A stretch of DNA of 62,112 nucleotides, the filler included, from Collodictyon triciliatum (taxonomy: Eukaryota): assembly GCA_043381765.1 (NCBI GenBank). It is 3 parts of 3 records of this genome, joined end to end, with 100 filler letters (N's around TTAATTAATTAA, not from the genome) between each part and the next. Parts side by side here need not be neighbours in the genome. Positions count along the whole stretch, not along the records: positions 1 to 28,329 come from JBHJMP010000030.1; 2 more parts are not named here. One strand, written 5' to 3'. The notes below the pieces were generated by a model. That model was not told where the DNA came from, made no database searches, and saw only the letters and a list, made by a program, of their open reading frames with translations. A program made the position numbers and the translations under genes. Positions 810-52,006 of the stretch are shown piece by piece (the first letter of the stretch is position 1; every line of letters begins with the position of its first letter).

Positions 810-3800
810 ATGTCCGAGGAAAAGCAGTCAGAGTCGATCAATCCAAAGACGCAAGAAGCTGATGGTTCGGCTTTACTTTCTTATTGCAGATATTCTCTAC
901 TCTTCTAGAGAAATAACAAGTGTCCTTGTTCCAACTTCCAAAAAAACTAAAATATGACTGATTCAAAACGATCTCTTGTGCACGAATGCTGATTTTTTTT
1001 TATTTGCTTCATTTTTGCATGGATTGATACGTCGCAGGCCTGGACCATGAAACCCTTGGAGATGGGGATGTGAATACACGCAGCCAGGATAATGATGCCG
1101 GTTCATTTCCTATGTTTTCTTTTTGTGTCATTTCCCGTCACTCCATCGCTGCATGATTCCCTTTTGTATTCATCACAATAATTAATTTACAACCTATTCG
1201 TAAGAGGCAGATTCTGAGGAGGACTGGGACGCACTTCTCGGTAATATCAAAATATAGCCTGTTGGGAAAGAAAAAAAATCTGACGCAATTTAGATTTCTA
1301 TTTTTCACAGCACAAATCCGACACTCCTTTCCCGCGCATAATTTGATGCAATTTACATTGGAATATTTTCTTATTTTCTTTTTGTGTATGTAACCGCATC
1401 TCTGTGCAAATAGCTTCATCATCAGAGGATGAAGACGAAGCCGAATTAGATAACCGGCCCGAAAATGATAATGCAGAAGGAAATTACATCTCTGTGAGTA
1501 TTGCAAACCTCGATGGAAAAGAAGATCGCAATCGTAGTAGAAAAGCCGTTGCTATGAATCGACAGCGGATGATGAATCGGGAGGCTCTAAAGAAAGTCGG
1601 AGCACAAGTACAAATGGAGCTGGAAGACAAGAAAAGGACAGTTGCCCAGGCTACAGAAAGTGTAAGCCGCCTCTGTATTGTTGTTCTATCGTTTTCTATT
1701 AATTTTTTTTTCAGCGCGGTTCATTCTTATTCAATCATTTCCTGTCGCAAATATGGACACGCACCTAACGAGTTTTTATACTTCCTCGCATCTTACGGGC
1801 CACTTCTGCATCCATGTTTTTGTCTCCTGCATATCTATTATGCATTCAAAGGCTATGGAGGCTCGTGACCAGAGCAAAATGGCAAAGGCTGAATATTTAC
1901 AAATGAGCGAGAAAGTAAAGAATATGGAGGTGACGCCTTGTTACACTAAAATCATTTGAAAAACACACGTTTTTGTTGCAATTTTCATGTATTTACGCTT
2001 ATTGAGACCAAAAGCATGTGTTTATGACAAAGTACCATTCATTAATCCTGCTGATTCAGATGGACTCAAAGTCTTCTCCCCAAGAACTTATAAGGGCAAA
2101 GAGACAGCTGATGGAGGTATTGCCTTTGGATTGCTTCCCAATCGATCTTTTTATATCCTATTTATGTATGACATTATGTCAGAGAAATCTAAATCTTCCA
2201 TCGAGCATGAAGGCTAGTTTTTATTTTTCTCTTCATCAATATCTGATTACTGATCGTATGTATACCATCGTTTGTGATGTTTAGCTCTCTGCGTTCGCTG
2301 AACAAATGGCCCGGGCAGCTGGGGAGCAGCAAAGGGCTCTTGATATTGTATGTTTATGCGCATATTCGTTCTATAATAGCAGCACCCTAAAATTTACTCG
2401 TTTGTTTAAATCAAGATGGAAGGAGAATTGTTGCAAATCGAGCTAGAAGCCATGAAGGTTGTAGAAGCTGTAGATGGTCTAAGAGATGAAGAGGTAACAT
2501 TACTCTTGTCTATTTCCGAGAAAAATGACTTTAAAATTCGAATTACCTTATTCTATCTGGGTGTTTTTTTTTTAAAAAAAAAGAAGTTATTTATCTGGGT
2601 GATATATTGAGTACTCACTCCCTGGTTTCTTTCTACCATACAAAATTACGACCACCGTGCTGAATGAATGGTTGACAAGTACATATTCATTTGATTAGGC
2701 AGCTGATATGCAGGAAATGGAGGAAATGGCCCAAAGACATGCAGGGATTGAGCATCATGCGGCCAGAAAGTATGAAGCCAGACTGAAGAAACGACTTGAC
2801 ATTATCCAGCAAAAGATTGAACAACAAGAAATCACTAGGTGATCATTTCCTTCCATCTTTGTTTTTTTTGTAAAAGGGGAGCTAACTTCCTGTCTTTTTT
2901 GGCGATTCATATTTAAAGTTTATGAATGCAATCCCATCATACTTTCTATATACATGAAAAATCTTGTACGAAACTTTGCATAATAATCAGAAAAAAAGCG
3001 ATGCAAGACGCTCGAGCTGGACGGAGAAAAGCTCAAGAAAGAGTCGAAAAATTGCTTAATTCATTCGTTTCTGCCAAAGTAACGCTCTTTTACTATTTTA
3101 CTCTGCTTTTGTATCCTGTTTTCAATAACACACGCTATTATAAATTTAGACCAAATTCTGTGAACCATAAAATTGTTAACAAGACTCTATTACGGGTCAT
3201 ATTCGTTCACTTCATTGCAATTTTTATCCTTTTTATTTTTTTTTGTTTGTTTGATATCCATTTTGAAAGATTTCAATCGATTTTAACACCCGACATACCA
3301 TTCACAAAATACATCTTGTCAAATTATTTATGCATCATATGAATAATTAGGAGGAAGACTTGAACAAGCGTTTGGAACACAAAGCGAAAAGAGTTAAGGC
3401 TTTCCTGGAATTGAAGTCAAATATCGAATCATCTCAAGCACAGATTCGTTCTTCATTGGAGAAAAAGTATATCCCATTTACGAACAAGTTTATATACCTG
3501 ATGAATCCATCTGTCCGAAATTGAACAGTATACTGTTATAAAAAAATAGTATCGTGGCTCTCAACTGATATCATTTTGGATGACCATAGGATGAAAAAGA
3601 AACAAGAACAACGTGAACGAGAAGAAGCTGAGAAGCAAGAAATCCTCAAATATGGAGGAAATCCGTACGAAGTATGATTTAGTACGCAGAGCACAGCCTA
3701 TATATGTTGCCCCTTCCTTTAATTATGGGTGTCTATATACCCACTTAATGTTCCAAAAAAAATTTTTAACGCCAAAAAAGAAAAGACGCATAACCGCAAA

Positions 3801-17054: not shown

Positions 17055-20000
17055 TCACTCAATCACTTCGGCCTCTTCAAACTCGTCCTCGTGTGCCTGG
17101 CCATTCGTGGTTGCATATGCGCGCTCCATATCAGCATCAAACATCTGCAACAAATCGAGAAGCCCAGGTGATGCTGCTGCACTCTCTCGTGACGGTTCTG
17201 CTCTCATTTCCTGGCCTATGACACCACAGTCTCTGCTGCTGATTATGTTAGGTGGCATGTCAGTTTTGCTTGGCTTACCACCTGCGCTTGCATTAGTTGC
17301 ACTTGTTGGGTGCTTTGTCTTTGCGCCTGGCTTCGCTCCGAGCGGTGTGGTGTAGTGCGTTGTGCTTACTCCGGAACTTGCTGTCTGTGTCAGGGCCGGC
17401 TTTGCTTTGATAAGAAGTCCGGCCTTGGCCTTGTCCAGCTTTGCCGAAATCTTGCTTTTTGCCTGTGCAGCTGGTGCTTTTCTGGTTGGCTCGGTCCGTT
17501 TGGCAAGAGAGGCCGGTGCGTGCGAGCCAGCTTCTGCTTGTGCATCATTCTGGGATGAGGCTGGTTCATTTTGCGAGATGTCTGAATGTTTTCGTTTCTT
17601 TTGAGCTGGGATGGAGTGTGGCAGTTTGCAGGAGTCTCCCTTGTCACAAAGACCAGTCGTTTGGAATTGTGGGCAGATATACACGTGGTTCAATTTGCAC
17701 GTGTCCCCCTCGTGGCAGTATCCCTGGTTGTGTGTTGATGTTTTTAATGGGAGGGGTTTCCAATATATATATTTAAAATGCTTGTCTGTGAGTGATTGAA
17801 GCTTGCGCTTAATCGCGATGTTTGTTCCTACTTTGAGGAAATTAGGACAGGCTCCAGCATCACTGTTCACTTTTACATGTCGGTAGGGGCATGGGTCTTG
17901 TATGCAAACGCCCTTCAGAAAGTGGATACAAACAGGCATTTTGTCCTGCGAGACTTTATGGGATAACAAGCATTCTTTGTTGTTGCATTCCCCTGTAGTG
18001 ATATCAAGTAGTTCAAGCGAATAAACATGTGCGACTGAATAATCATGACAAAAAAATTGTTGATTTGTATAATGAGTTTTTTTTTTTTACATATATTCTT
18101 CCATGCCATGAAGGAGAGCATAATTCCGCTTTATAAGTGCATGGTGTGAGTACCTTTCAGGAATTTTCGACAAACTGCGACCTTGGTGGGGTCATGGACA
18201 TATTTGCACTTTGGTCCATCTGTGCATTTGCCTAGATATGTTGGAAATGTATACATAGAGGATAAAATTGAAGAAAGCATTAATGAAAGTCATCATACAT
18301 GTCCCTTTATATCACCACAAGTTCGGAAATTTCCTGTCAGCATATGGAACGAAGGTGAATAAAAAAATAGTAAAAATAATATAATCAACTAATCAGGATG
18401 ATAGACAAAGCAAAAAGGAGAAATGCGCAGGTAATATAGTATATGACTTTTTCTTCTTTTTTAACAAGTGCGCAAAAAAAAAAAAAACTAGGATATTTAG
18501 CAGTTCTTTTATATATAATAGACGAAGTGGACATCACAATATCTTTCGTAATATAAATAAATTAATATCCACCGAATCTAGTGAAGAATAGGCATAATTC
18601 ATCCTTCTTTTGTCCGCTTGTTTGTCTAACTTTAAACAAACTTAGCTTCACTTTTTGCCTATGTTTGGTTGTCATTATTTATACTAAAAATGCAACTTAC
18701 TGGTAGATTAGATGGACAAATATTTGATGTTAAAAATCTGATGATAAATATATATATAGGATTATCACCGTTTATCTCCCAACGAAACGTAAATATCAAT
18801 AGATTGTTTTGAAGGGACATGCAAATAATCAATGAAAAGCAATATAAAAATAAGCCAATACTTTGCCAAGGACACTGGATTTACTTGAACAACTTTGATT
18901 AGCTTTTTACCATCGCTAGACTTGATATACTTGACCTTCTCTATTTTCTGTCGTATACTTCTTAGCACATTTTCTGAAACAGGGTTTATCCTTTTTGTCA
19001 TACCTTTGCAAACAAAGAGTAAAAGGTGATATGAGTAAATTAAATAATGATTAAAGTATTACAGCTAATAGAATGAGTGTATGTTGAATAAAGTTCATGG
19101 CTAGAACGGGCATTTCTATAATTCGCTACTTTTGTTAAGTATCAGGGACTTTCCATTGCCGGATTTCTGGTAATCACACCCGCTCAGCTTGATATTTTGA
19201 ATTGAATGACGATTCATTACAGACCGGATGCGTGAACTGTATATAAAAATAAAGTACATATTGATATGCAGCTCCTTCACTCCATAGGAAATGTCAAAAA
19301 AATTCATGACTGAAAAGAAGTACACAGATCAGATGAATAGGGAGGAAAAACATGATTAAGTGAGATGGCAGATAGTCAAAAGTGCAGATGATTGCATACC
19401 CAGTGCGACTTATACCAGTTGGTAAATACTGCTTCGAAAGATGACCTTTGCTTGGTTTTGAGAACAAGTAAGGGTTTGTGTTGTGGTATATGGGATATGC
19501 AGAGTTGTGGAAACTATATCCATAGTGTGGGAAATTGCCAGGGAAGTATCCTCTATGCAAAGGATGCATCGCATTTGCCATCCAACTTTTTTTATTTAGC
19601 GGAGATGATCTTGAGAACCTGGCGACTGGCATGCAAAAATAAAATTATAAGTAGATAGCTTATAAAATATAATTTAATTACCCAGTTATTCTTCTTTTAG
19701 AAACTAAAGGCATCCATAAATTAAAGAGATGACGAGTAAAGATTGAAGGAAAAAGATGAAGCAAATTTTTCTTGAAGAAAAGGAAAGTAATGAGTCATGG
19801 CTGAAGTGCTTTTAAATTGTGGGGCACGATAGTGGAAGCATTCTTGTATGTACCTTGAGGTTTCTTTTCAACTTTGGAAAGTGCGACACCTTTTCTGACG
19901 ATGGCGTTCGCCTTTGGTTTTATAAACTGATTTTCATTTGTGATAGTTGGAGGTATTTGCTGTCCTGTTGATGCTGTCGGAATTATTGTGAGCTTCGTTG

Positions 20001-21181
20001 ATGATGTTTCTTTGATTAGCGAACGGTCGAGGGATGCAGGAGATGAACCCGACAATATTTGATTTGATGTGACTGATTCCTTTTGCTTTATAACCGATGG
20101 GCTTGAGATAACAGGTTTTGCTAGAGACTTTTGCTTTTGCTCATTATCAGCATGTTTCTGTGCTACAGCAATAGGAGACGCCTTTAAAATGGTCAGCTTT
20201 GCTTCGGATATTTGCGCATCGTTCTGTAATTGTGGCTTCTGTGAATTAGCCGTTGGATTCGATACTAGGTTTTTTTCTGGCGCGACGCTTGAAGTAGATG
20301 ACTTGCTCTTTAATGGCGGGCCTGAGTTTGCTGAGTTTGCTTTGTTTATTGTGTTTGCTGATTTTGTTGTGTTTGCTGATTTTGTTGTGTTTGCTGTGTT
20401 TGCTGATTTTGTTGTGTTTGCTTTGTTTGCTGTGTTTGCTTTGTTTGCTGTGTTTGCTTTGTTTGTTGTGTTTGCTGATTTTGTTGTGTTTGTTGTGTTT
20501 GCTGTGTTTGTTGTGTTTGCTGTGTTTGTTGTGTTTGTTGTGTTTGTTGTGTTTGTTGTGTTTGTTGTGTTTGTTGTGTTTGTTGTGTTTGTTGTGTTTG
20601 TTGTGTTTGTTGTGTTTGTTGTGTTTGTTGTGTTTGCTGTGTTCGTTGTGTTTGTTGTGTTTGTTGTGTTTGTTGTGTTTGTTGTGTTTGCTGTGTTCGA
20701 GCTGGTTGACCGGTTCGAGCTTTGTGGTGATGGGTTTGGCTCATGTGAATGTTTGTTCAGCACAAGCGACATATTTGCATGGAATAAGACGGGTGATGTT
20801 TGGTGATGAAATGTCGTTGTCCGTGGCGGTCTCTGGTGGTAGCTACTTCTATATCATCGTCGTTAGTGTTATGGAATCGAACATTACTGGGGCACAATTG
20901 AAATGAAAAGAAAAGAGAAAAAAAGACAAGAAAAGAAAAGAAAAGAAATGAAAAGAAAAGAGAAAAAAAGACAAGAAAAGAAAAGAAAAGAAAAGAAAAG
21001 ATAATCATGAGTAGTCATCTAAAACGATTGGGGCGACTGTGCGCCTGTGGAATGTGCATAGTGAGTTCATGTATGAATGTCTTCGACTGCGGTGTCCATA
21101 CGGTGTTGTTGGGTCTGATGTCGGTTTACTCAGGGTCATGTTTTTATAACCGTGGCGCACAAAAGAGCGGTGCGGATGCAT
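17055..21181 (-). CDS. ZC3H3: Tandem CCCH zinc-finger protein, ZC3H3/Red5-like, with long low-complexity N-terminus; 5' exon structure uncertain
   Basis: Spliced fingers: CKYVHDPTKVAVCRKFLKGECNNKECLLSHKVSQDKMPVCIHFLKGVCIQDPCPYRHVKVNSDAGACPNFLKGYCHEGDTCKLNHVYICPQFQTTGLCDKGDSCKLPH. Confidence 0.75.
20340..20697 (-). repeat. Coding 9-nt tandem repeat (NTT/NTA/NKA/KSA)n in the ZC3H3-like exon
   Basis: gtgtttgtt/gtgtttgct units; frame open within ORF 19795-20772. Confidence 0.9.
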
Positions 21182-21857: not shown

Positions 21858-22302
21858 GGAAGTATCAAAGCGGTATGGCGAACCAAATTATAAATGTGTC
21901 CCAAATTTCTCGTGAGAATACCAAAAACGTATTATTCCAGTTATAGATTTTTAGAAGAATCATTTAAAGGGCGGTGGCCGGGAGAAGATGCGCACTGCCT
22001 CATCCAAACTCACGAAGTTACTTTTTCTTACAGAACCCAGGATTTCAGCCGCTCAAAGCCACTTCGTCCATCTGATATGGTTAGTATCTGATTCTAGACT
22101 GCATAAGTTTGGAGTTAAAGTGTGGGATTGTCTTTATTCTCATTTTGAAGCCCTTCTGTAAACAAGAAAACCACTTGAGTCCAGTAAAAAAGAGAGTGCA
22201 CGGGGTACAACCTGATTATTTTAAAGAGCTACTTTACCACTTATAATTTTTTATGTGAAAAAATGTAAGAGACATACTTACTCCAAGGCGATGGATATAC
22301 AT

Positions 22303-25300
22303 TTATTCGGTGGAAGTCTTTCTCTTGTAAGCTGATAAAACTTTCCTCCACTCTGCCGCTTTCTCCATGTTTCTCTCGACACCCCACGCATTCTCATAAC
22401 ACTCGACCATCAATAAAGCCTGGAATTTTGTGACTCTGCCTTGCTCGCAAAACTGAATAAAGCTCGCATCGAAAGAAACCGCGCCCATGGAAAGCAGGAG
22501 TAATTTGTTGAATTGGCTCAACCCTGTGACGTTCCTGAGCTGAATCTTTCTGTCCTCGGTTTCCCTCAGAATTTGAATTTGAGCAGTTTCCTTGTCACTG
22601 ATGTTTGCTGCATCAATCAGAGGTATTACGTATCTGACCCTGCTCGAAACGGGTGTAATTTCCATGATACCATGTATTTCGGTGAAAGTTTTGCCTTCAA
22701 GACACGTAGCCTTCGTTTTCTGTGTTGTTTTGATTTGGTTTTCTGCGATTATATTCCAAATACGTACTGCGTTATCTTCACTTGCTGATATTAACCAGTT
22801 TTCATGATTGAGACCTTGGAAACTACAAACACTCCAGACGATGTCTGTGTGACCTTCGAATAATCGAATTTGATGACCTGTTGTCATATCCCAGATACGT
22901 ATTGTGTTATCGCCACTTCCAGAAGCCAACCACTTTTCGCCGTTCGAACCATCAATGCCGCAAACACAGTTGACATATTTCAAATGACCCTGTAAAACTT
23001 CTATTTGGTTTCCTGTAGCTACATCCCAGACGCAAACTGTTTTATCGTTGCTCCCAGAGGCCAACCATTTTTCACCATTCGGTCCTTGGATGCTGCAAAC
23101 ACTTCTTACTGAGCCTGTATGGCCTTTGTATACCTTGATTTGGCTTCCTGTGGCCACATCCCAAATACGTATTGTATTGTCACCGCTTCCAGAAGCCAGC
23201 CATTTTTCGCCATTCGGTCCTTGAATACTGCAAATACTATTCACACCTCCTGCATGTCCTTCTATTACTTTGATTTGGCTTCCTGTGGCCACATCCCAAA
23301 CACGAATTGTTTTATCACTACTCCCAGAGGCCAACCAGTTTTCACCATTCGGTCCTTGAATCCTGCATACGTAATTGATAAACTTTGTGTGTCCTTTTAG
23401 GGTTTTGATAGGGTTTCCTGTGACTAAATCCCAAATGCGTATTGTTTCGTCGTTGCTCCCAGAAGCCAGCCAGCTTTCACCATTCGGTCCTTGGACACTA
23501 CAAACTAAGTTGACATCATTCGTGTGGCCCTCCAGTCTTTTTATTAGTCTCCCTGTGGCTAAATCCCAAATACCTATTGTTTTATCATTACTCGCAGAAA
23601 CCAGCCACTTTTCACCATTTGGTCCCTGAATACCACAAGCACTCATGACCCCATTAGTATGACCTTCCAGCTTTTTATAGAGAATTCCGAACTTCACATT
23701 ATTCATGAGTGAATTATCAAAAGCACAATTACCAAGCATCGAATCTGTGAAATCCACACCATCCAAGTTGGCACCAGTGAGATTTGCATCATCAAGGATT
23801 GAGTTACTAAGATTTGCATGTGGAATTTTGATGTATGATAAATCCATTCCACCAAAAGATACATCCATAAAATTCAAAAGTGTGACAGCATCAGATGCAG
23901 CCTTTGATTTGCTTTCATCGTTCTTTGACATGTAGACAATCCTGAATAATGAAGCAATTATTTGCTCTCGATTCCACTCGCCATCTAATTTTACATCACT
24001 GAGATTTTTACTGATGAGTTCCTTGACCCTGGTAAACTCCACGGGTTCTTTGATGATTTCAATTTCTCTCGAATAGAAAGATATGTGTTCGCATGAGTTT
24101 AATGTTCTGGCGTGAATCCATCCGAGTTTATCGGCAAATCTATCTCTCATGTCAGTCCAAAAGTCAACTGCTTCGTTACTTTGCTTCAGTTCCTTGTAAA
24201 TCTTGTCTGCATTCTCACAAGCCACCCAACAGTCCCAATTTTCATAGGATGAATTTTCTCCATATCTTATAATTGCAGTCTTAAACAAAAGAATGGCTGC
24301 GCAATATTCTTTCTTTTCTTCCAGAAATTTACCTATTGCTGCGCACTGCGATCCATTTCCCAGTGATATGATGGTTTGTGTCTCCTTTCTGATTACAGCA
24401 GCTTTACGAAAATACTCGACAACACGGTCCAACCTGAGTATATTGACCTTACTCAACGAAATATGTTTTTCAGACCATGGCATGGTGGGTACATTAATTT
24501 TCTATTTAATAATTTTATTTTACCTTTTTAACTCAAAATTTGTATTTCCAATATTTTCAAGGGCAGTTGCGTTTTCAACTTCATCAATCTTAAACTCCTT
24601 AGAGCTATAACTTGACCCTTTCAAATATTTACTACAGTCTAGAAGGAAAATATTCGACAATCGTGTCCTTTCGTGAGTCCACCCAAGATTTTCGTTGAAT
24701 CTATCTTTCATTTCAGCCCAAAATTGATATAGATTCTGATAAAGGTTGTTTTCGTAGCAATATTGATTCACATTCTCACACGCAATCCAACAGTCCAAAT
24801 GTTCATAGGTGAAGCCCTCAGCGGACTTGACAGCAGCAGTTTTGTAAAGTTGGACAAATATTTCATGCTCTTTCTTTTCTTTCATAAATCGAGCAATAAT
24901 TTCAATTTGTTGGATTTGATTTAACGACATTACGGTTTTCGTTTGTTCTCTTACAATGGCCGCCTTTTGAAAGCTATCGATCGACTGAGCAAAGCTGAAT
25001 GATATTTCATTATGAATTTATTTTGGGGCTATGCGCTTCCTGAGCAATTTATAAAAATAAAAAAAAACCTTTTCAACTCAAAGTTTGTTTTGCCAATATT
25101 CTCAAGTGAAGTTGAGAAATCAATATGCTTATCTCCCAGTGTCCTTTTTCGAATTTCTAACGTCTTGGCATAAGTCTCTAAGGCTCCTTTGAAACTAAAT
25201 ATTTAAATGTTAAAATAAAAAAAGAAGCATATCGTAGTCATAGTTTCCATTTATTTTTTTCGTGTAAATGTCCTTTTATATTCTCTTTTACCAGATTTGC

Positions 25301-26926
25301 TTGTTGATAACGTTAAATTCTTGTTATTTAGCCTTCAGATAAAATTATATATTTAAAAAAATACTCCTTCATGTCATAGCTGATGTCGCCGATCATTTCA
25401 TTGCAAGCCACAACATTTGGGTGGTTCTCACCAAGAGCAGAGATGAAGATATCAAGTGATTGCTTGAGACAGGACATTGCTTCCTTTCGACTACACAAGA
25501 TGGTTTTAAATACTATAAATGTAACCAAATATGGTGGAAATTATAGGAAAGACACCAATTTACTTTTTGCTTTGAAGATGAACTTTTGCTATAAACTGGA
25601 TTGTTGAAGCAACAGATGCGTGATTTGCTCCCAGTGATTTTTCAAGTATACACTTTCCTTTATGGTAGTTGTCAATGGCTTCTTTGAACCTAAATTATAT
25701 TTAAAAATTATATTGATATTTCTATGTATGATGAATCTTTCATCTAAAATGGTAAGGAAATCCGAATATTCATCACTTTTTTTCAGCTAGAGAAACATGA
25801 CCGAGGTTTATATACGATGATGCAACAAGAGGATGCTCATTTCCAACTTTTCTTTGGCGAATTTCCATGGATTTTCTGTATTCGCTCACACCTTGCCAAA
25901 TCCTAGGTATTATGAGTAATCAAATCATTTGTTTAAGCATAATTGCTTCAAAATCATATTTATACTTGTTCTGCTTCATATAGATATCCCCAAAGCGGTC
26001 ATAAGACTGAGCTACTTGTAGGTCATGCTCACCAAGCTGTTTCATTCTCATATCAAAAGATTTTTTGTACTCCTCAAGTGCTTCATTTATTCTAGGGATA
26101 CAGTTTTTCGATAAATACTTGATATGAATGTCTCAATCATAGTTCCGTATAGATACTTATTCTCTCGCTGGTAGATGAAACCTATTTCATCATGTATGGT
26201 GGCAACACTTGCAGTATTAGTTTCACTTTTTACGATGGAATCGAGACATTTCTTATAGTAAACCATCGATTCGCCCCAGCTATTATTGATGCATTAGTGG
26301 TTTACATAGAATCAAAAAAATATAAAATTTTTATTTTAGTTAGCACATTCAATTAATTGTTTTCTTTTACTTTTGGAGATTTTTGTAGACGCGACCAAGA
26401 TTCAAGTAATCTGTGGTCTTAAATTCTATAGTGCATGAGTTAGGCTTAAATATACGACCTCTCAATTTAGATACTTATAAAGGAAAACGCGTGAAATTTA
26501 TTTATCAAAATATTTTTAAAAGAGGCATGAATGGTATGGTTATCACCTTCTTTCTGGTGCTTTCCGAGGCGTATGTTTAGGACAGACAATAGAAAGGAAT
26601 TTTCATATGATTCCAAAAAAAACTCAACTAGTAGGTCTCCTACTTTATCTGTGGCCTGTAGCCATTAATTTGTTTTTTTTTAAAAAAAAAAAAAAAGAAT
26701 TTCAGGTTATAAGATGTGATTGATAAAAGGAAAAGTGAATATAATTTCTCAACCTTGGACATAGTTCTATAGATATCCTTGTAGTCTGCAGCCCCACTAG
26801 TGTTTATTGCTCTCCAGCATGTAAAGAATTCATAACGATAGCGACCACTGAGCATGATACTGATGACCTGTTGATAGTCAAGAGAATTTTGAGCAAGGAC
26901 CACCGAAAAAGAATCAACCAATCAAC

Positions 26927-26997
<71 letters not shown>

Positions 26998-28103
26998 GAT
27001 TGGTAGAGTATTTTGTCCATTCACATTTTAATTCGAAATTTTGATATCAGAGGGCATACGTGCTTTTGTTTTATGTATTCAACTAGTAAATTGAACGAAT
27101 TTCCTCGTAGTAACTGATAGCATATCTCTGCAGCGAGCTCTTCGTCTACATCCACAATCTCTGAGTATTGGCCATACAGCCATTCTCCATAACTTTCATG
27201 AGCACTCCGTAAAGTTTGGCTATCTGGGAAGTAAACCTTCTCAGAAGTCTCCAAAAGCAACTGATGGAAGTACATATATCTGGTGTGATGAAATTTAGTG
27301 GGGTAATATAAAATTAACAAGCATCAAATAACAAAATAAGGATAATATAGGAGACTAACCTTCCATTTCGAACAAAGAGTGAATCAATAAGGGTGAAGAA
27401 GAAAGATTTCCTATAAAAAAAATATATTTAAATGGTTGTGTTCATGAACGCAGAAAGTTTTATTGCGATAAATTTCATGTGATATCGATGCCATCAATAC
27501 AAAAGCATAGAAATTACCACTCAGCGAGCTCAAATCCGCCTCCAATAATATCTTTCATGTACCTATCCAAATCTCCCTCGCTCAATCCGATGCGAGAAAC
27601 ATACAAAACTTTCATCGAAGGGGCAACATATTTCGCATCTAAATATCGTTTAATAATCAAAGCCATGATTAAGTTAATGAAAATAAAATTCATATACAAC
27701 AGTTTTAATTACCTCTTCTGTCAAACTTAAGCTGCCAGCGTTGTATGATAAGAGTATAGAGATCGATCACACCATCTGTCGAAAGTAGCGTATTCAACTC
27801 TTCATCAAGCTTTTCATATACCCCAAAAATCCTAATTTCACCAAGAATGATACGAAGATACAGGGGATGACCTAAAAAAAATATGGTAAATATTTGACTA
27901 GGGTTGATTGAGCGTAGTGTTCACATTTCAGTTGTGAAAAAAAAAGTCGTACCGGTGTCTTCGTAATCTGCTAAGATCATTTGCATTTGTTTTTCGTTCA
28001 AAACTTTATCGTAGCATGTGAGAAATGATTCCACACACTCTTTAACTTCTTCTTTTGTTAATTTGGCGACGGCAATAGGCTCCAACCCATTTTGCACAGC
28101 GTG
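22303..28103 (-). CDS. NLR-like STAND protein, 5'-truncated: NACHT C-terminal/winged helix (NPHP3/TEP1-type), 42-aa TPRs, two copies of an unknown domain, pentapeptide repeats, 7 WD40, SEL1-like repeat
   Basis: Spliced frame: GHPLYLRIILGEIRIFGVYEKLDEEL, SRIGLSEGDL, YMYFHQLL; TPRs such as EALEEYKKSFDMRMKQLGEHDLQVAQSY; terminal exon 24433-22303 with DLSYIKIPHANLSNSILDDANLTGANLDGV, GH...WD repeats and ECYENAWGVERNMEKAAEW. Confidence 0.85.
22745..23672 (-). repeat. Seven 135-nt (45-aa) WD40 repeats with high mutual similarity
   Basis: Recurring QGPNGEKWLASGSxDxTIRIWD; recurring DNA ccattcggtccttg. Confidence 0.9.
26916..26996. repeat. (CAAT)n intronic microsatellite
   Basis: Direct reading. Confidence 0.95.
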
Positions 28104-28169: not shown

Positions 28170-28329
28170 GGAGCAGGAGCAGGAACAGGAACAGGAACAG
28201 GAACAGGAGCAGGAGCAGGAACAAGAACAAGAACAGGAACAGGAACAGGAACAGGAACAGGAACAGGAACAGGAACAGGAACAGGAACAGGAACAGGAAC
28301 AGGAACAGGAACAGGAACAGGAACAGGAA
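28170..28329. repeat. (GGAACA)n repeat at contig end
   Basis: Direct reading. Confidence 0.95.
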
Positions 28330-28429
28330 NNNNNNNNNNNNNNNNNNNNNNNNNNNNNNNNNNNNNNNNNNNNTTAATTAATTAANNNNNNNNNNNNNNN
28401 NNNNNNNNNNNNNNNNNNNNNNNNNNNNN
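28330..28429. other. Artificial contig-joining spacer N44-TTAATTAATTAA-N44
   Basis: Six-frame stop linker inside N run; genes on both sides are truncated. Confidence 0.95.
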
Positions 28430-28548
28430 AAAAAAGAGAAAAAAGAGAAAAAAGAGAAAAAAGAGAAAAAAGAGAAAAAAGAGAAAAAAGAGAAAAAAGA
28501 GAAAAAAGAGAAAAAAGAGAAAAAAGAGAAAGACAAGGAGAGGGAAAC

Positions 28549-28967
28549 CTTGACGGACGTGTCGACAGAAGAAGAGGCGAGCGTGTTTCCACCAAAGGGG
28601 CTGAAGTCGAGGTCTGTGAGCGCCGCAGTGTGCCCGGAGCACACAGAGATTTCGCGGCCGATCTTCCCGACACGATCGAACGGCAGCACGCCGATGGTCC
28701 CGGCCCCACCGCTGGACTCCCACAGGAAAGCAACATACTTTGCGCTGCAGAGCAAGCGTGCATTAGAGTCTCCGGTTGGCTGCGGCGGCGTCTGCGGAGA
28801 CGTGGGTTCTGCGCGAGTGGAAAGGGCGAGGAGCGTGCGTACCTTGCGCGAACCATGTCGCCGTCCACGGTGGTGCTCAAGGCGGGGACGTCGTTGTACC
28901 ACTGCTCTTTGCGCCGCGCAGCACCCGTCGAGTGGCGGTACTTGGAGACGCGGAAGCGGGTGGACAT
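28549..28967 (-). CDS. Coronin-family protein (coronin-7/villidin-like), first two exons, 3'-truncated by contig join
   Basis: MSTRFRVSKYRH...VRA|SAKYVAFLWESSGGAGTIGVLPFDRVGK...GHTAALTDLDFSPFGGNTLASSSVDTSVK. Confidence 0.9.
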
Positions 28968-29370
28968 TCGAGCTGTCGGCTGGCTGCTGGGTTGTTGGGT
29001 GGCCTTGTTGTTTCTTTCCTTTCAGTTTCTTTTGTTTTTTATTTTCTGTTTTTTGGTTTTTGTGTTTTTTTCTGTTTCTTCTGTTTTTCTGTTTTTTTCT
29101 GTTTCTTCTGTTTTTTTTTTTTTCTATTCGGTTTTTTTGTGTTTTGTTTTCTGTTTTTTGTTATTGCCAAGACGTTGATTTTGATTGACATTTGATCGGG
29201 TGATTCTGTCTCGCCTGATTAGGTATGATTCGGCACAATCATGTCCTGATTTGGCATATTCACACACAAGAGAATTTTTTTTCATTTTGCACGGAGACCT
29301 GGCTGCTTGCGCTGTGTGTATGCGCCACTCGGGCAACAACAGTGACTTGCGAGCTCGTAATGAATTAAAA

Positions 29371-30118: not shown

Positions 30119-43504
<13,386 letters not shown>

Positions 43505-51906: not shown

Positions 51907-52006
51907 NNNNNNNNNNNNNNNNNNNNNNNNNNNNNNNNNNNNNNNNNNNNTTAATTAATTAANNNNNNNNNNNNNNNNNNNNNNNNNNNNNNNNNNNNNN
52001 NNNNNN
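51907..52006. other. Artificial contig-joining spacer N44-TTAATTAATTAA-N44
   Basis: Same linker as at 28330. Confidence 0.95.

Follow-up and report, generated by a model that had tools for sequence, protein, structure and literature searches.

Gene structure and TPR exons

We identified an array of six tetratricopeptide repeat (TPR) exons on the minus strand of a 62,112-nucleotide stretch of DNA from Collodictyon triciliatum (GenBank assembly GCA_043381765.1). This stretch, here called the window, consists of parts of three records joined with filler between them, and the array lies in the first of these (JBHJMP010000030.1). With a probability of roughly 80%, the array arose by exon duplication long ago and has since stayed fixed, within one ordinary, constitutively spliced gene for a large STAND-type nucleoside triphosphatase (NTPase). 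The first-pass annotation of the window had read the same exons as a candidate combinatorial cassette of an immune receptor.

The six exons (v9 to v14, Table 1) have the borders first proposed for them, one interval of 123 nucleotides (nt) and five of 126 nt with GT-AG introns in phase 2. An AG precedes and a GT follows each exon (6/6), and each starts on the third base of a codon and stops after two bases of the next. Spliced together they give a single open frame of 250 residues, while the remaining two frames are filled with stop codons. The used frame stays open in 158–370 of 5000 shuffling trials per exon, so that six consecutive exons with matching splice signals are not a product of chance. 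The arithmetic of the earlier proposal also holds, as no frameshift would follow from the loss or doubling of a symmetric phase-2 exon. The intron after v8, which is the first of the series, lies at the same phase-2 position, as do both borders of v15. In total, eight introns occupy the homologous phase-2 spot of the TPR repeat. The spliced product of the window aligns without gaps at every junction to proteins from spliced transcripts of Diphylleia rotans, which gives independent support for the exon borders.

The 250-residue frame is of the kinesin light chain (KLC) TPR type. When single exons were compared with Pfam, four of the six matched TPR_12, TPR_10 or TPR_NPHP3, all below the gathering score, as one would expect of single pieces of 42 residues. 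Aligned to KLC, the exon border falls at the turn between TPR helix A and helix B. With the register set by this alignment and the textbook TPR consensus, each exon would run from helix B of one repeat through the LGxxHP linker to helix A of the following repeat. The earlier description of one TPR per exon is therefore correct in its 42-residue period and out of register in its borders.

The visible part of the gene has 16 exons, with GT-AG introns throughout, and encodes 1439 residues up to a stop codon at 22303 (minus). From about residue 800 of a full-length D. rotans homologue (P0003, described below), exon v1 matches the last part of the NTPase domain and the beginning of the winged-helix region (tblastn, P0003 800–899). 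Residues 800–1524 of P0003 fall in order on v1 to v15, and residues 1–799 have no tblastn match anywhere in the 62-kb window. As the gene also runs into an assembly gap, with N runs at 28330–28373 and 28386–28429, its 5' half including the NTPase core is probably missing from the assembly here. To judge from the homologue, the part that the gap appears to cut off encodes a calponin-homology (CH) domain, DUF4062 and the NTPase core.

The donor site of v7 was set at 26547, where the joint gives residues found in both P0003 and the related D. rotans protein P0004. An alternative in-phase donor at 26475 was rejected, as it adds 24 residues absent from the homologues. The last exon, v16, encodes a second helical module, pentapeptide repeats (about 23743–23844), a WD40 propeller (about 22700–23615) and a C-terminal tail. 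The pentapeptide repeats score 43 bits against a cut-off of 20.2 for Pfam Pentapeptide. The propeller has seven repeats (Pfam WD40, 7 stretches, E 1e-62) and also passes Beta-prop_TEP1_2nd with 104 bits against 89.

A (GATT)n microsatellite at 26925–27010 occupies most of the intron between v5 and v6 (minus strand). Reads of one sequencing run (X1, see below) are apparently cut at 26908–27006 in the same intron.

Table 1. Exons of the STAND-type gene and other features of the window, by position in the window
Feature	Position	Strand	Length (nt)	Phase	Remarks
Exon v1	28103-27953	minus	151		AG/GT borders, open frame; first piece beyond the gap
Exon v2	27871-27713	minus	159		helical/winged-helix region behind the NTPase
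Exon v3	27638-27518	minus	121		70% identical to P0003 and to P0004 across 37 residues
Exon v4	27410-27360	minus	51	2-2	
Exon v5	27279-27060	minus	220		
Exon v6	26867-26754	minus	114		(GATT)n microsatellite in its upstream intron
Exon v7	26655-26547	minus	109		TPR region begins here
Exon v8	26410-26371	minus	40		TPR helix A; 72% identity over 18 residues
Exon v9, TPR exon 1	26279-26157	minus	123	2-2	
Exon v10, TPR exon 2	26091-25966	minus	126	2-2	TPR_12, E 2.2e-4
Exon v11, TPR exon 3	25902-25777	minus	126	2-2	TPR_12, E 1.2e-4
Exon v12, TPR exon 4	25689-25564	minus	126	2-2	no Pfam match on its own
Exon v13, TPR exon 5	25490-25365	minus	126	2-2	TPR_12, E 2.8e-3
Exon v14, TPR exon 6	25194-25069	minus	126	2-2	TPR_12, E 2.8e-5
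Exon v15	24994-24524	minus	471	2-2	
Exon v16 (last)	24433-22303	minus	2131		includes the stop codon
Gap and microsatellite	28170-28429				(TTCCTG)n-type repeat and two 44-N runs
Coronin gene start	28440-29021	minus			GC-rich
Kelch-type gene	31165-36126	plus			multi-exon
CCCH zinc-finger gene	17055-18290	minus			
Asn/Thr-rich frame	19795-20853	minus			352 residues

Homologues and protein family

A full HMMER search with the v15 open reading frame (ORF) as the query returned only four proteins among 1.84 billion representative proteins. Three of these (P0001, P0003 and P0004) are ORFs of D. rotans transcripts from EukProt, and the fourth is a 77-residue NCBI fragment. The window gene is 33–44% identical to P0001, P0003 and P0004. 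The first-pass annotation had placed the gene in a flagellate protist, in agreement with these relatives, the sole ones found, as D. rotans is a flagellate.

P0003 is a full-length homologue of 2619 residues. It consists of a CH domain, DUF4062, a NACHT-like NTPase, KLC-type TPRs, pentapeptide repeats and WD40 repeats, of which there are about 14 or more. The DUF4062 scores 42.5 bits against a Pfam cut-off of 24.7, and the best solved match for this part of the protein in the PDB is TEP1 (11gz_A, E 3.7e-14). The NTPase falls just below the cut-offs of three Pfam families, with 25.3 bits against 26.7 for NACHT, 24.5 against 27.1 for nSTAND1 and 23.1 against 24.8 for NPHP3_N. NB-ARC is not among the 6 Pfam families that match P0003 at E <= 0.01.

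The TPR regions of both P0003 and P0004 lie well above the Pfam TPR_12 cut-off of 30.1 bits, with scores of about 136. For TPR_NPHP3, P0004 reaches 89.7 bits against a cut-off of 100, and single exons of the window reach 16.5–17.1 bits. The solved structures nearest to the TPR array of P0004 are those of the kinesin light chains KLC1 and KLC2 (E ~1e-17).

The gene carries C-terminal repeats (TPR, pentapeptide and WD40) behind an NTPase and helical region, as STAND proteins do. Judged from sequence, a STAND family gene with a TEP1/NPHP3 flavour would be a fair description, the NACHT assignment being borderline and made by way of P0003. The NPHP3/TEP1-type NACHT scaffold that had been suggested for this gene is thus borne out in part. 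The DUF4062 and the near-cut-off NTPase are present in the homologue; the NACHT core does not lie in the window.

A word-index search with the TPR-plus-module region of P0003 among proteins of near lengths gave P0003 itself and distant TPR proteins with 20–26% identity. Among shorter proteins 48 were found, none more than 34% identical and most 20–30%, and bacteria are the source of the few that are named; this search missed even P0004 and is uninformative on isoforms. A word-index protein search with the unit-6 exon ORF gave no candidate. Metagenome scans with the start of v16 and with v5 gave pattern matches, but no relative by tblastn.

Divergence and order of the TPR units

The TPR units of the window gene have diverged extensively. 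Units 2–6 are 21–31% identical in protein, and the exons show 40–49% DNA identity. Profiles of the six exons, in both DNA and protein, identified no decayed copies of a TPR exon in the introns or on the opposite strand of the gene. The sole real extra match in the gene region is a duplicated helix at the end of v15, described below. The rest of the 62-kb window yields only weak profile rows, the best of which is at 3689–3729 (plus strand, nhmmer E 0.27).

The five introns within the array range from 63 to 170 nt, and no pair of them aligns better than shuffled sequences. This lack of detectable similarity, together with the spread of lengths, is what would be expected if the repeats had been duplicated intron-free and introns had been inserted later, one by one, at the same context. 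A similar A-rich context before the GT ends every unit and could have served as a repeated insertion site. However, eight independent gains at an identical codon position and phase would make a much less parsimonious history than duplication of a single exon-intron unit followed by decay of the introns, and at such exon divergence an erased similarity between introns is expected anyway. We consider late intron gain unlikely.

The order of the units is conserved across the paralogues. All six are collinear one-to-one with those of P0003 and P0004, and five are collinear with P0001, which is truncated at its N-terminus, in each case without gaps of 42 residues. The mean identity of units across genes is 0.35 at the same position compared with 0.20–0.22 at other positions. 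The best cross-gene match lies at the same position for 19 of 22 units, a count that leaves out the truncated unit 2 of P0001. When position labels were permuted within genes, none of 2000 permutations reached the observed score. The best conserved unit is TPR exon 6, with 66% identity to unit 6 of P0004. Conservation that is specific to position implies that each unit has its own role, which argues against a cassette of interchangeable exons.

Identity to the homologues is 40–45% in the TPR region, 30–44% in the modules and pentapeptide part, and 57–72% in the NTPase-proximal region. With an identity in the range of the modules and the pentapeptide part, the TPRs show no sign of unusually fast evolution.

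These results do not bear out the combinatorial cassette. The exons are of old origin and differ widely among themselves, the introns are unrelated, and the order is kept across four genes that are themselves only 33–44% identical. An invariant exon order is among the patterns that the first-pass annotation had associated with ancient tandem duplication only.

Exon v15 and the helical module

Exon v15 follows the TPR exons and consists of three parts: a helical module of 113 residues, a linker, and a duplicate of the helix that ends TPR unit 6. The module lies behind the TPRs on the minus strand and occurs twice, in v15 (24524–24994) and at the start of v16 (24095–24433). The two copies are 39–41% identical (41% over 106 residues). 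This module of about 113 residues matched no Pfam family. Placement by a protein language model suggests that it may be TPR-like, which we treat as a lead only.

The duplicated helix (LENIG-x-TNFELK) is identical at 33 of 38 nt between the ends of v15 and v14. The codon differences between the two copies are 4 synonymous and 1 non-synonymous. The 471-nt frame of v15 stays open in none of 20000 shuffles. From its sequence, v15 seems to have arisen by an old tandem duplication whose breakpoints lie within v14 at one end and within v16 at the other. The sequence divergence and the open frame point to an extra exon that is old and kept by selection, and not to a fresh rearrangement.

The window gene and P0001 have two copies of the helical module, and P0003 and P0004 have one. 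We constructed a tree of the modules with the aim of dating the v15 duplication, in which none of the 4 inner branches is well supported. At most, this tree gives a weak hint of a grouping between the first module of the window gene and that of P0001.

A retained in-frame duplication across two exons raises the question of exon shuffling that continues in evolutionary time, within and between paralogous loci, and diversifies a receptor family. Such a process has been proposed for the NB-ARC-TPR genes of Ectocarpus siliculosus, whose TPR exons have the same size as those described here (126 nt, 42 residues), and the available part of that report (Zambounis et al. 2012, PMC3341825) counts 124 similar TPR exons in 13 loci. 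The grounds for shuffling given in that part are this large number of similar exons, inactivated exons in introns, an exon order hardly conserved between paralogues, and diversifying selection. Those of these hallmarks that were tested did not turn up in the window gene. In addition, the v15 duplication is itself old, as seen from the module identity and the 4 synonymous changes in 12 conserved codons, and only four members of the family that the module defines occur among the 1.84 billion representatives. We consider ongoing shuffling very unlikely.

Evidence on splicing

Two deposited D. rotans sequences, P0003 and P0009, are isoforms of one gene. They are identical at 2609 of 2619 residues without gaps, and their TPR regions are identical. 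For the window gene, we compared three sequencing runs of one study with the window; that these runs represent RNA is a guess. One contig of run X3 (depth 2.2, with 3 other letters in 127) joins TPR exons 2 and 3 with exactly the 63-nt intron removed. Contigs of run X1 span 22300–23234 in v16 with 5 other letters. Most pieces of the runs are 90–95% alike and cluster at the WD40 repeats, which indicates that they come from paralogues or relatives. Contig joints with replaced letters, such as one from 24393 to 25077, were judged to be mosaics of paralogues and were discarded as evidence.

The symmetric TPR exons, and perhaps v15, might be skipped or combined in splicing to give receptor isoforms with different binding surfaces. 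With eight phase-2 junctions, any exon from v9 to v15 could be omitted in frame. According to the KLC alignment, loss of an exon would fuse a helix A to a later helix B and keep the TPR period. There is also a precedent in the alternatively spliced repeat exons of Ectocarpus ROCO genes (Teng et al. 2024, PMC11378527, available in part). However, the deposited isoforms are alike in the TPR region, the unit order is the same in all three D. rotans transcript proteins, and the sole junction covered by a contig is the constitutive one. The separate role of each unit implied by its position-specific conservation is a further argument against this explanation. It is weakened and not refuted by these observations, the evidence on splicing in this organism being very thin, and we regard it as distinctly unlikely.

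A more specific version would have a TEP1/NPHP3-like NACHT protein vary its TPR surface by regulated exon skipping, with v15 toggling between one and two modules. We consider this very unlikely. If true, it would represent a second, independent origin of receptor diversification by repeat exons of the brown-algal type, on a deep eukaryotic branch that has been little studied. More generally, an active cassette would mean that a route to receptor diversity proposed outside animals also exists in a deep lineage of eukaryotes.

Comparison with known repeat proteins

The layout of 126-nt TPR exons of 42 residues each is already published for the Ectocarpus NB-ARC-TPR genes, the precedent cited in the first-pass annotation, and the part of PMC3341825 that was available gives exactly this exon size. 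In both systems the TPR domain of a STAND protein is encoded by symmetric 126-nt exons with one 42-residue period each. However, the NTPase of the Ectocarpus proteins is NB-ARC, while the homologue P0003 matches NACHT, nSTAND1 and NPHP3_N, all below the cut-offs. The window gene also differs from the Ectocarpus genes, as the same part describes them, in that it has no dead exons, a conserved order and a small family.

A repeat-per-exon array, and with it the idea of combinatorial isoforms, is shared with the brown-algal NB-ARC-TPR genes and ROCO genes, and the LRR exons of Ectocarpus ROCO genes are likewise in phase 2. According to the available part of PMC11378527, the ROCO genes also give splice variants with different repeat content. 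No splice variants with altered repeat content were found among the sequences compared here, in contrast to the brown-algal ROCO genes. As for the NB-ARC-TPR genes of brown algae, Teng et al. are said to have described in 2023 several splice variants with different repeat content.

Animal STAND proteins of the TEP1, NPHP3 and NWD1 type consist of DUF4062 or NPHP3_N, followed by NACHT and then TPR or WD40. The present gene resembles TEP1 and NPHP3 in the DUF4062 of P0003 (known in the homologue alone), in near-threshold matches to NPHP3_N and TPR_NPHP3, and in the Beta-prop_TEP1_2nd match that passed. It is unlike TEP1, NPHP3 and NWD1 in its N-terminal CH domain and in the combination of TPR, pentapeptide and WD40 repeats in a single protein. 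In addition, no TROVE domain was seen, and NACHT, NPHP3_N and TPR_NPHP3 all fall below the curated cut-offs.

The nearest solved relative of the TPRs is kinesin light chain (7ai4, 3nf1; E ~1e-17), which shares the 42-residue period and the LGxxHP linker. However, this is a kinship of domains only, as kinesin light chain has neither an NTPase nor WD40 repeats.

The variability of fungal NLR repeats arises from near-identical repeats that recombine inside one exon. In contrast, the repeats described here are 21–31% identical and lie on separate exons. A likeness to the fungal NLRs exists in the presence of NACHT or NB-ARC proteins with TPR or WD40 sensors outside animals and plants, the fungal proteins having highly similar TPR, ANK or WD repeats in the available part of the report (Dyrka et al. 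2014, PMC4986451). Among the matches listed by a broad literature search, none dealt with genes of this kind in Diphylleia or Collodictyon, which does not imply absence from print.

Origin and possible function of the array

The array most likely originated by ancient tandem duplication of a unit consisting of one 126-nt exon and its intron. Only in-frame, symmetric copies could have survived such duplication, which would explain why all units share the same phase and position. For such duplicates to survive, their phase has to be symmetric, and this symmetry does not demonstrate combinatorial use of the exons. The array would have been fixed before the paralogues split and then frozen, and its units would have diverged into position-specific sequences that were kept across the paralogues. 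Splicing of these exons in C. triciliatum is probably constitutive.

Several observations weigh against this history. The array introns share no sequence, so the origin by duplication of exon plus intron is something that we infer. Three of the 22 units (window unit 4 and P0001 units 3 and 5) have their best match at another position; such single-unit comparisons are noisy, at 42 residues each. Compared with the NTPase-proximal region, the TPR region is less well conserved, a difference that diversifying selection could also yield, and the homologues are known as proteins only. Within the array the exon 2–3 junction alone is covered by contigs, and contigs drop rare variants. Finally, v15 represents at least one in-frame rearrangement among these exons that was retained.

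The predicted protein, as seen through its homologue, would consist of a CH domain, DUF4062, a NACHT-like NTPase, a winged-helix and helical region, and about eight KLC-type TPRs, followed by one or two copies of the helical module, pentapeptide repeats and a WD40 propeller. The TPR array probably acts as one fixed binding surface. By analogy with other STAND NTPases, the repeats may hold the NTPase off until a partner is bound, after which nucleotide exchange would drive assembly.

The earlier suggestion that the gene encodes an immune receptor finds no support here, as nothing ties the gene to immunity. TEP1, NPHP3 and kinesin light chain are scaffold or cargo proteins, and given these relatives an immune role is no likelier than a cytoskeletal or flagellar one. 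Involvement in immunity is possible.

More modestly, the gene provides a clean example of a repeat domain, checked against homologues, in which the exon layout still bears the mark of its probable origin through duplication of exons. The combination of CH, DUF4062, NACHT-like NTPase, KLC-type TPR, pentapeptide and WD40 domains in one STAND protein seems unusual. The gene is of use for annotation of the genome, and it is a caution that symmetric repeat exons by themselves do not signal combinatorial use.

Other features of the window

Directly upstream of the truncated STAND gene, and with microsatellites on either side, lies the start of a coronin gene. It matches Pfam DUF1899 in two frames (profile positions 2–39 and 38–66), followed by a WD40 repeat. 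From its position, the gap hides the remainder of the coronin gene as well as the 5' half of the STAND gene. Paired 44-N runs with 12 bases between them occur twice in the window, at 28330–28429 and 51907–52006; other gaps are 100 N or longer. The paired runs may reflect a masking or scaffolding convention.

Three further features were identified (Table 1). The multi-exon gene on the plus strand encodes Kelch-type beta-propeller repeats, and its single exons match the Attractin/LZTR1 and KLHDC2-type Kelch families of Pfam, all below the cut-offs. The CCCH zinc-finger gene passes zf-CCCH with 20.9 bits against 20.5 and has a long low-complexity tail. The Asn/Thr-rich frame consists largely of a hexanucleotide repeat (NTTNTT...). 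On both strands several of its frames are open, and it is probably a microsatellite expansion, coding or not.

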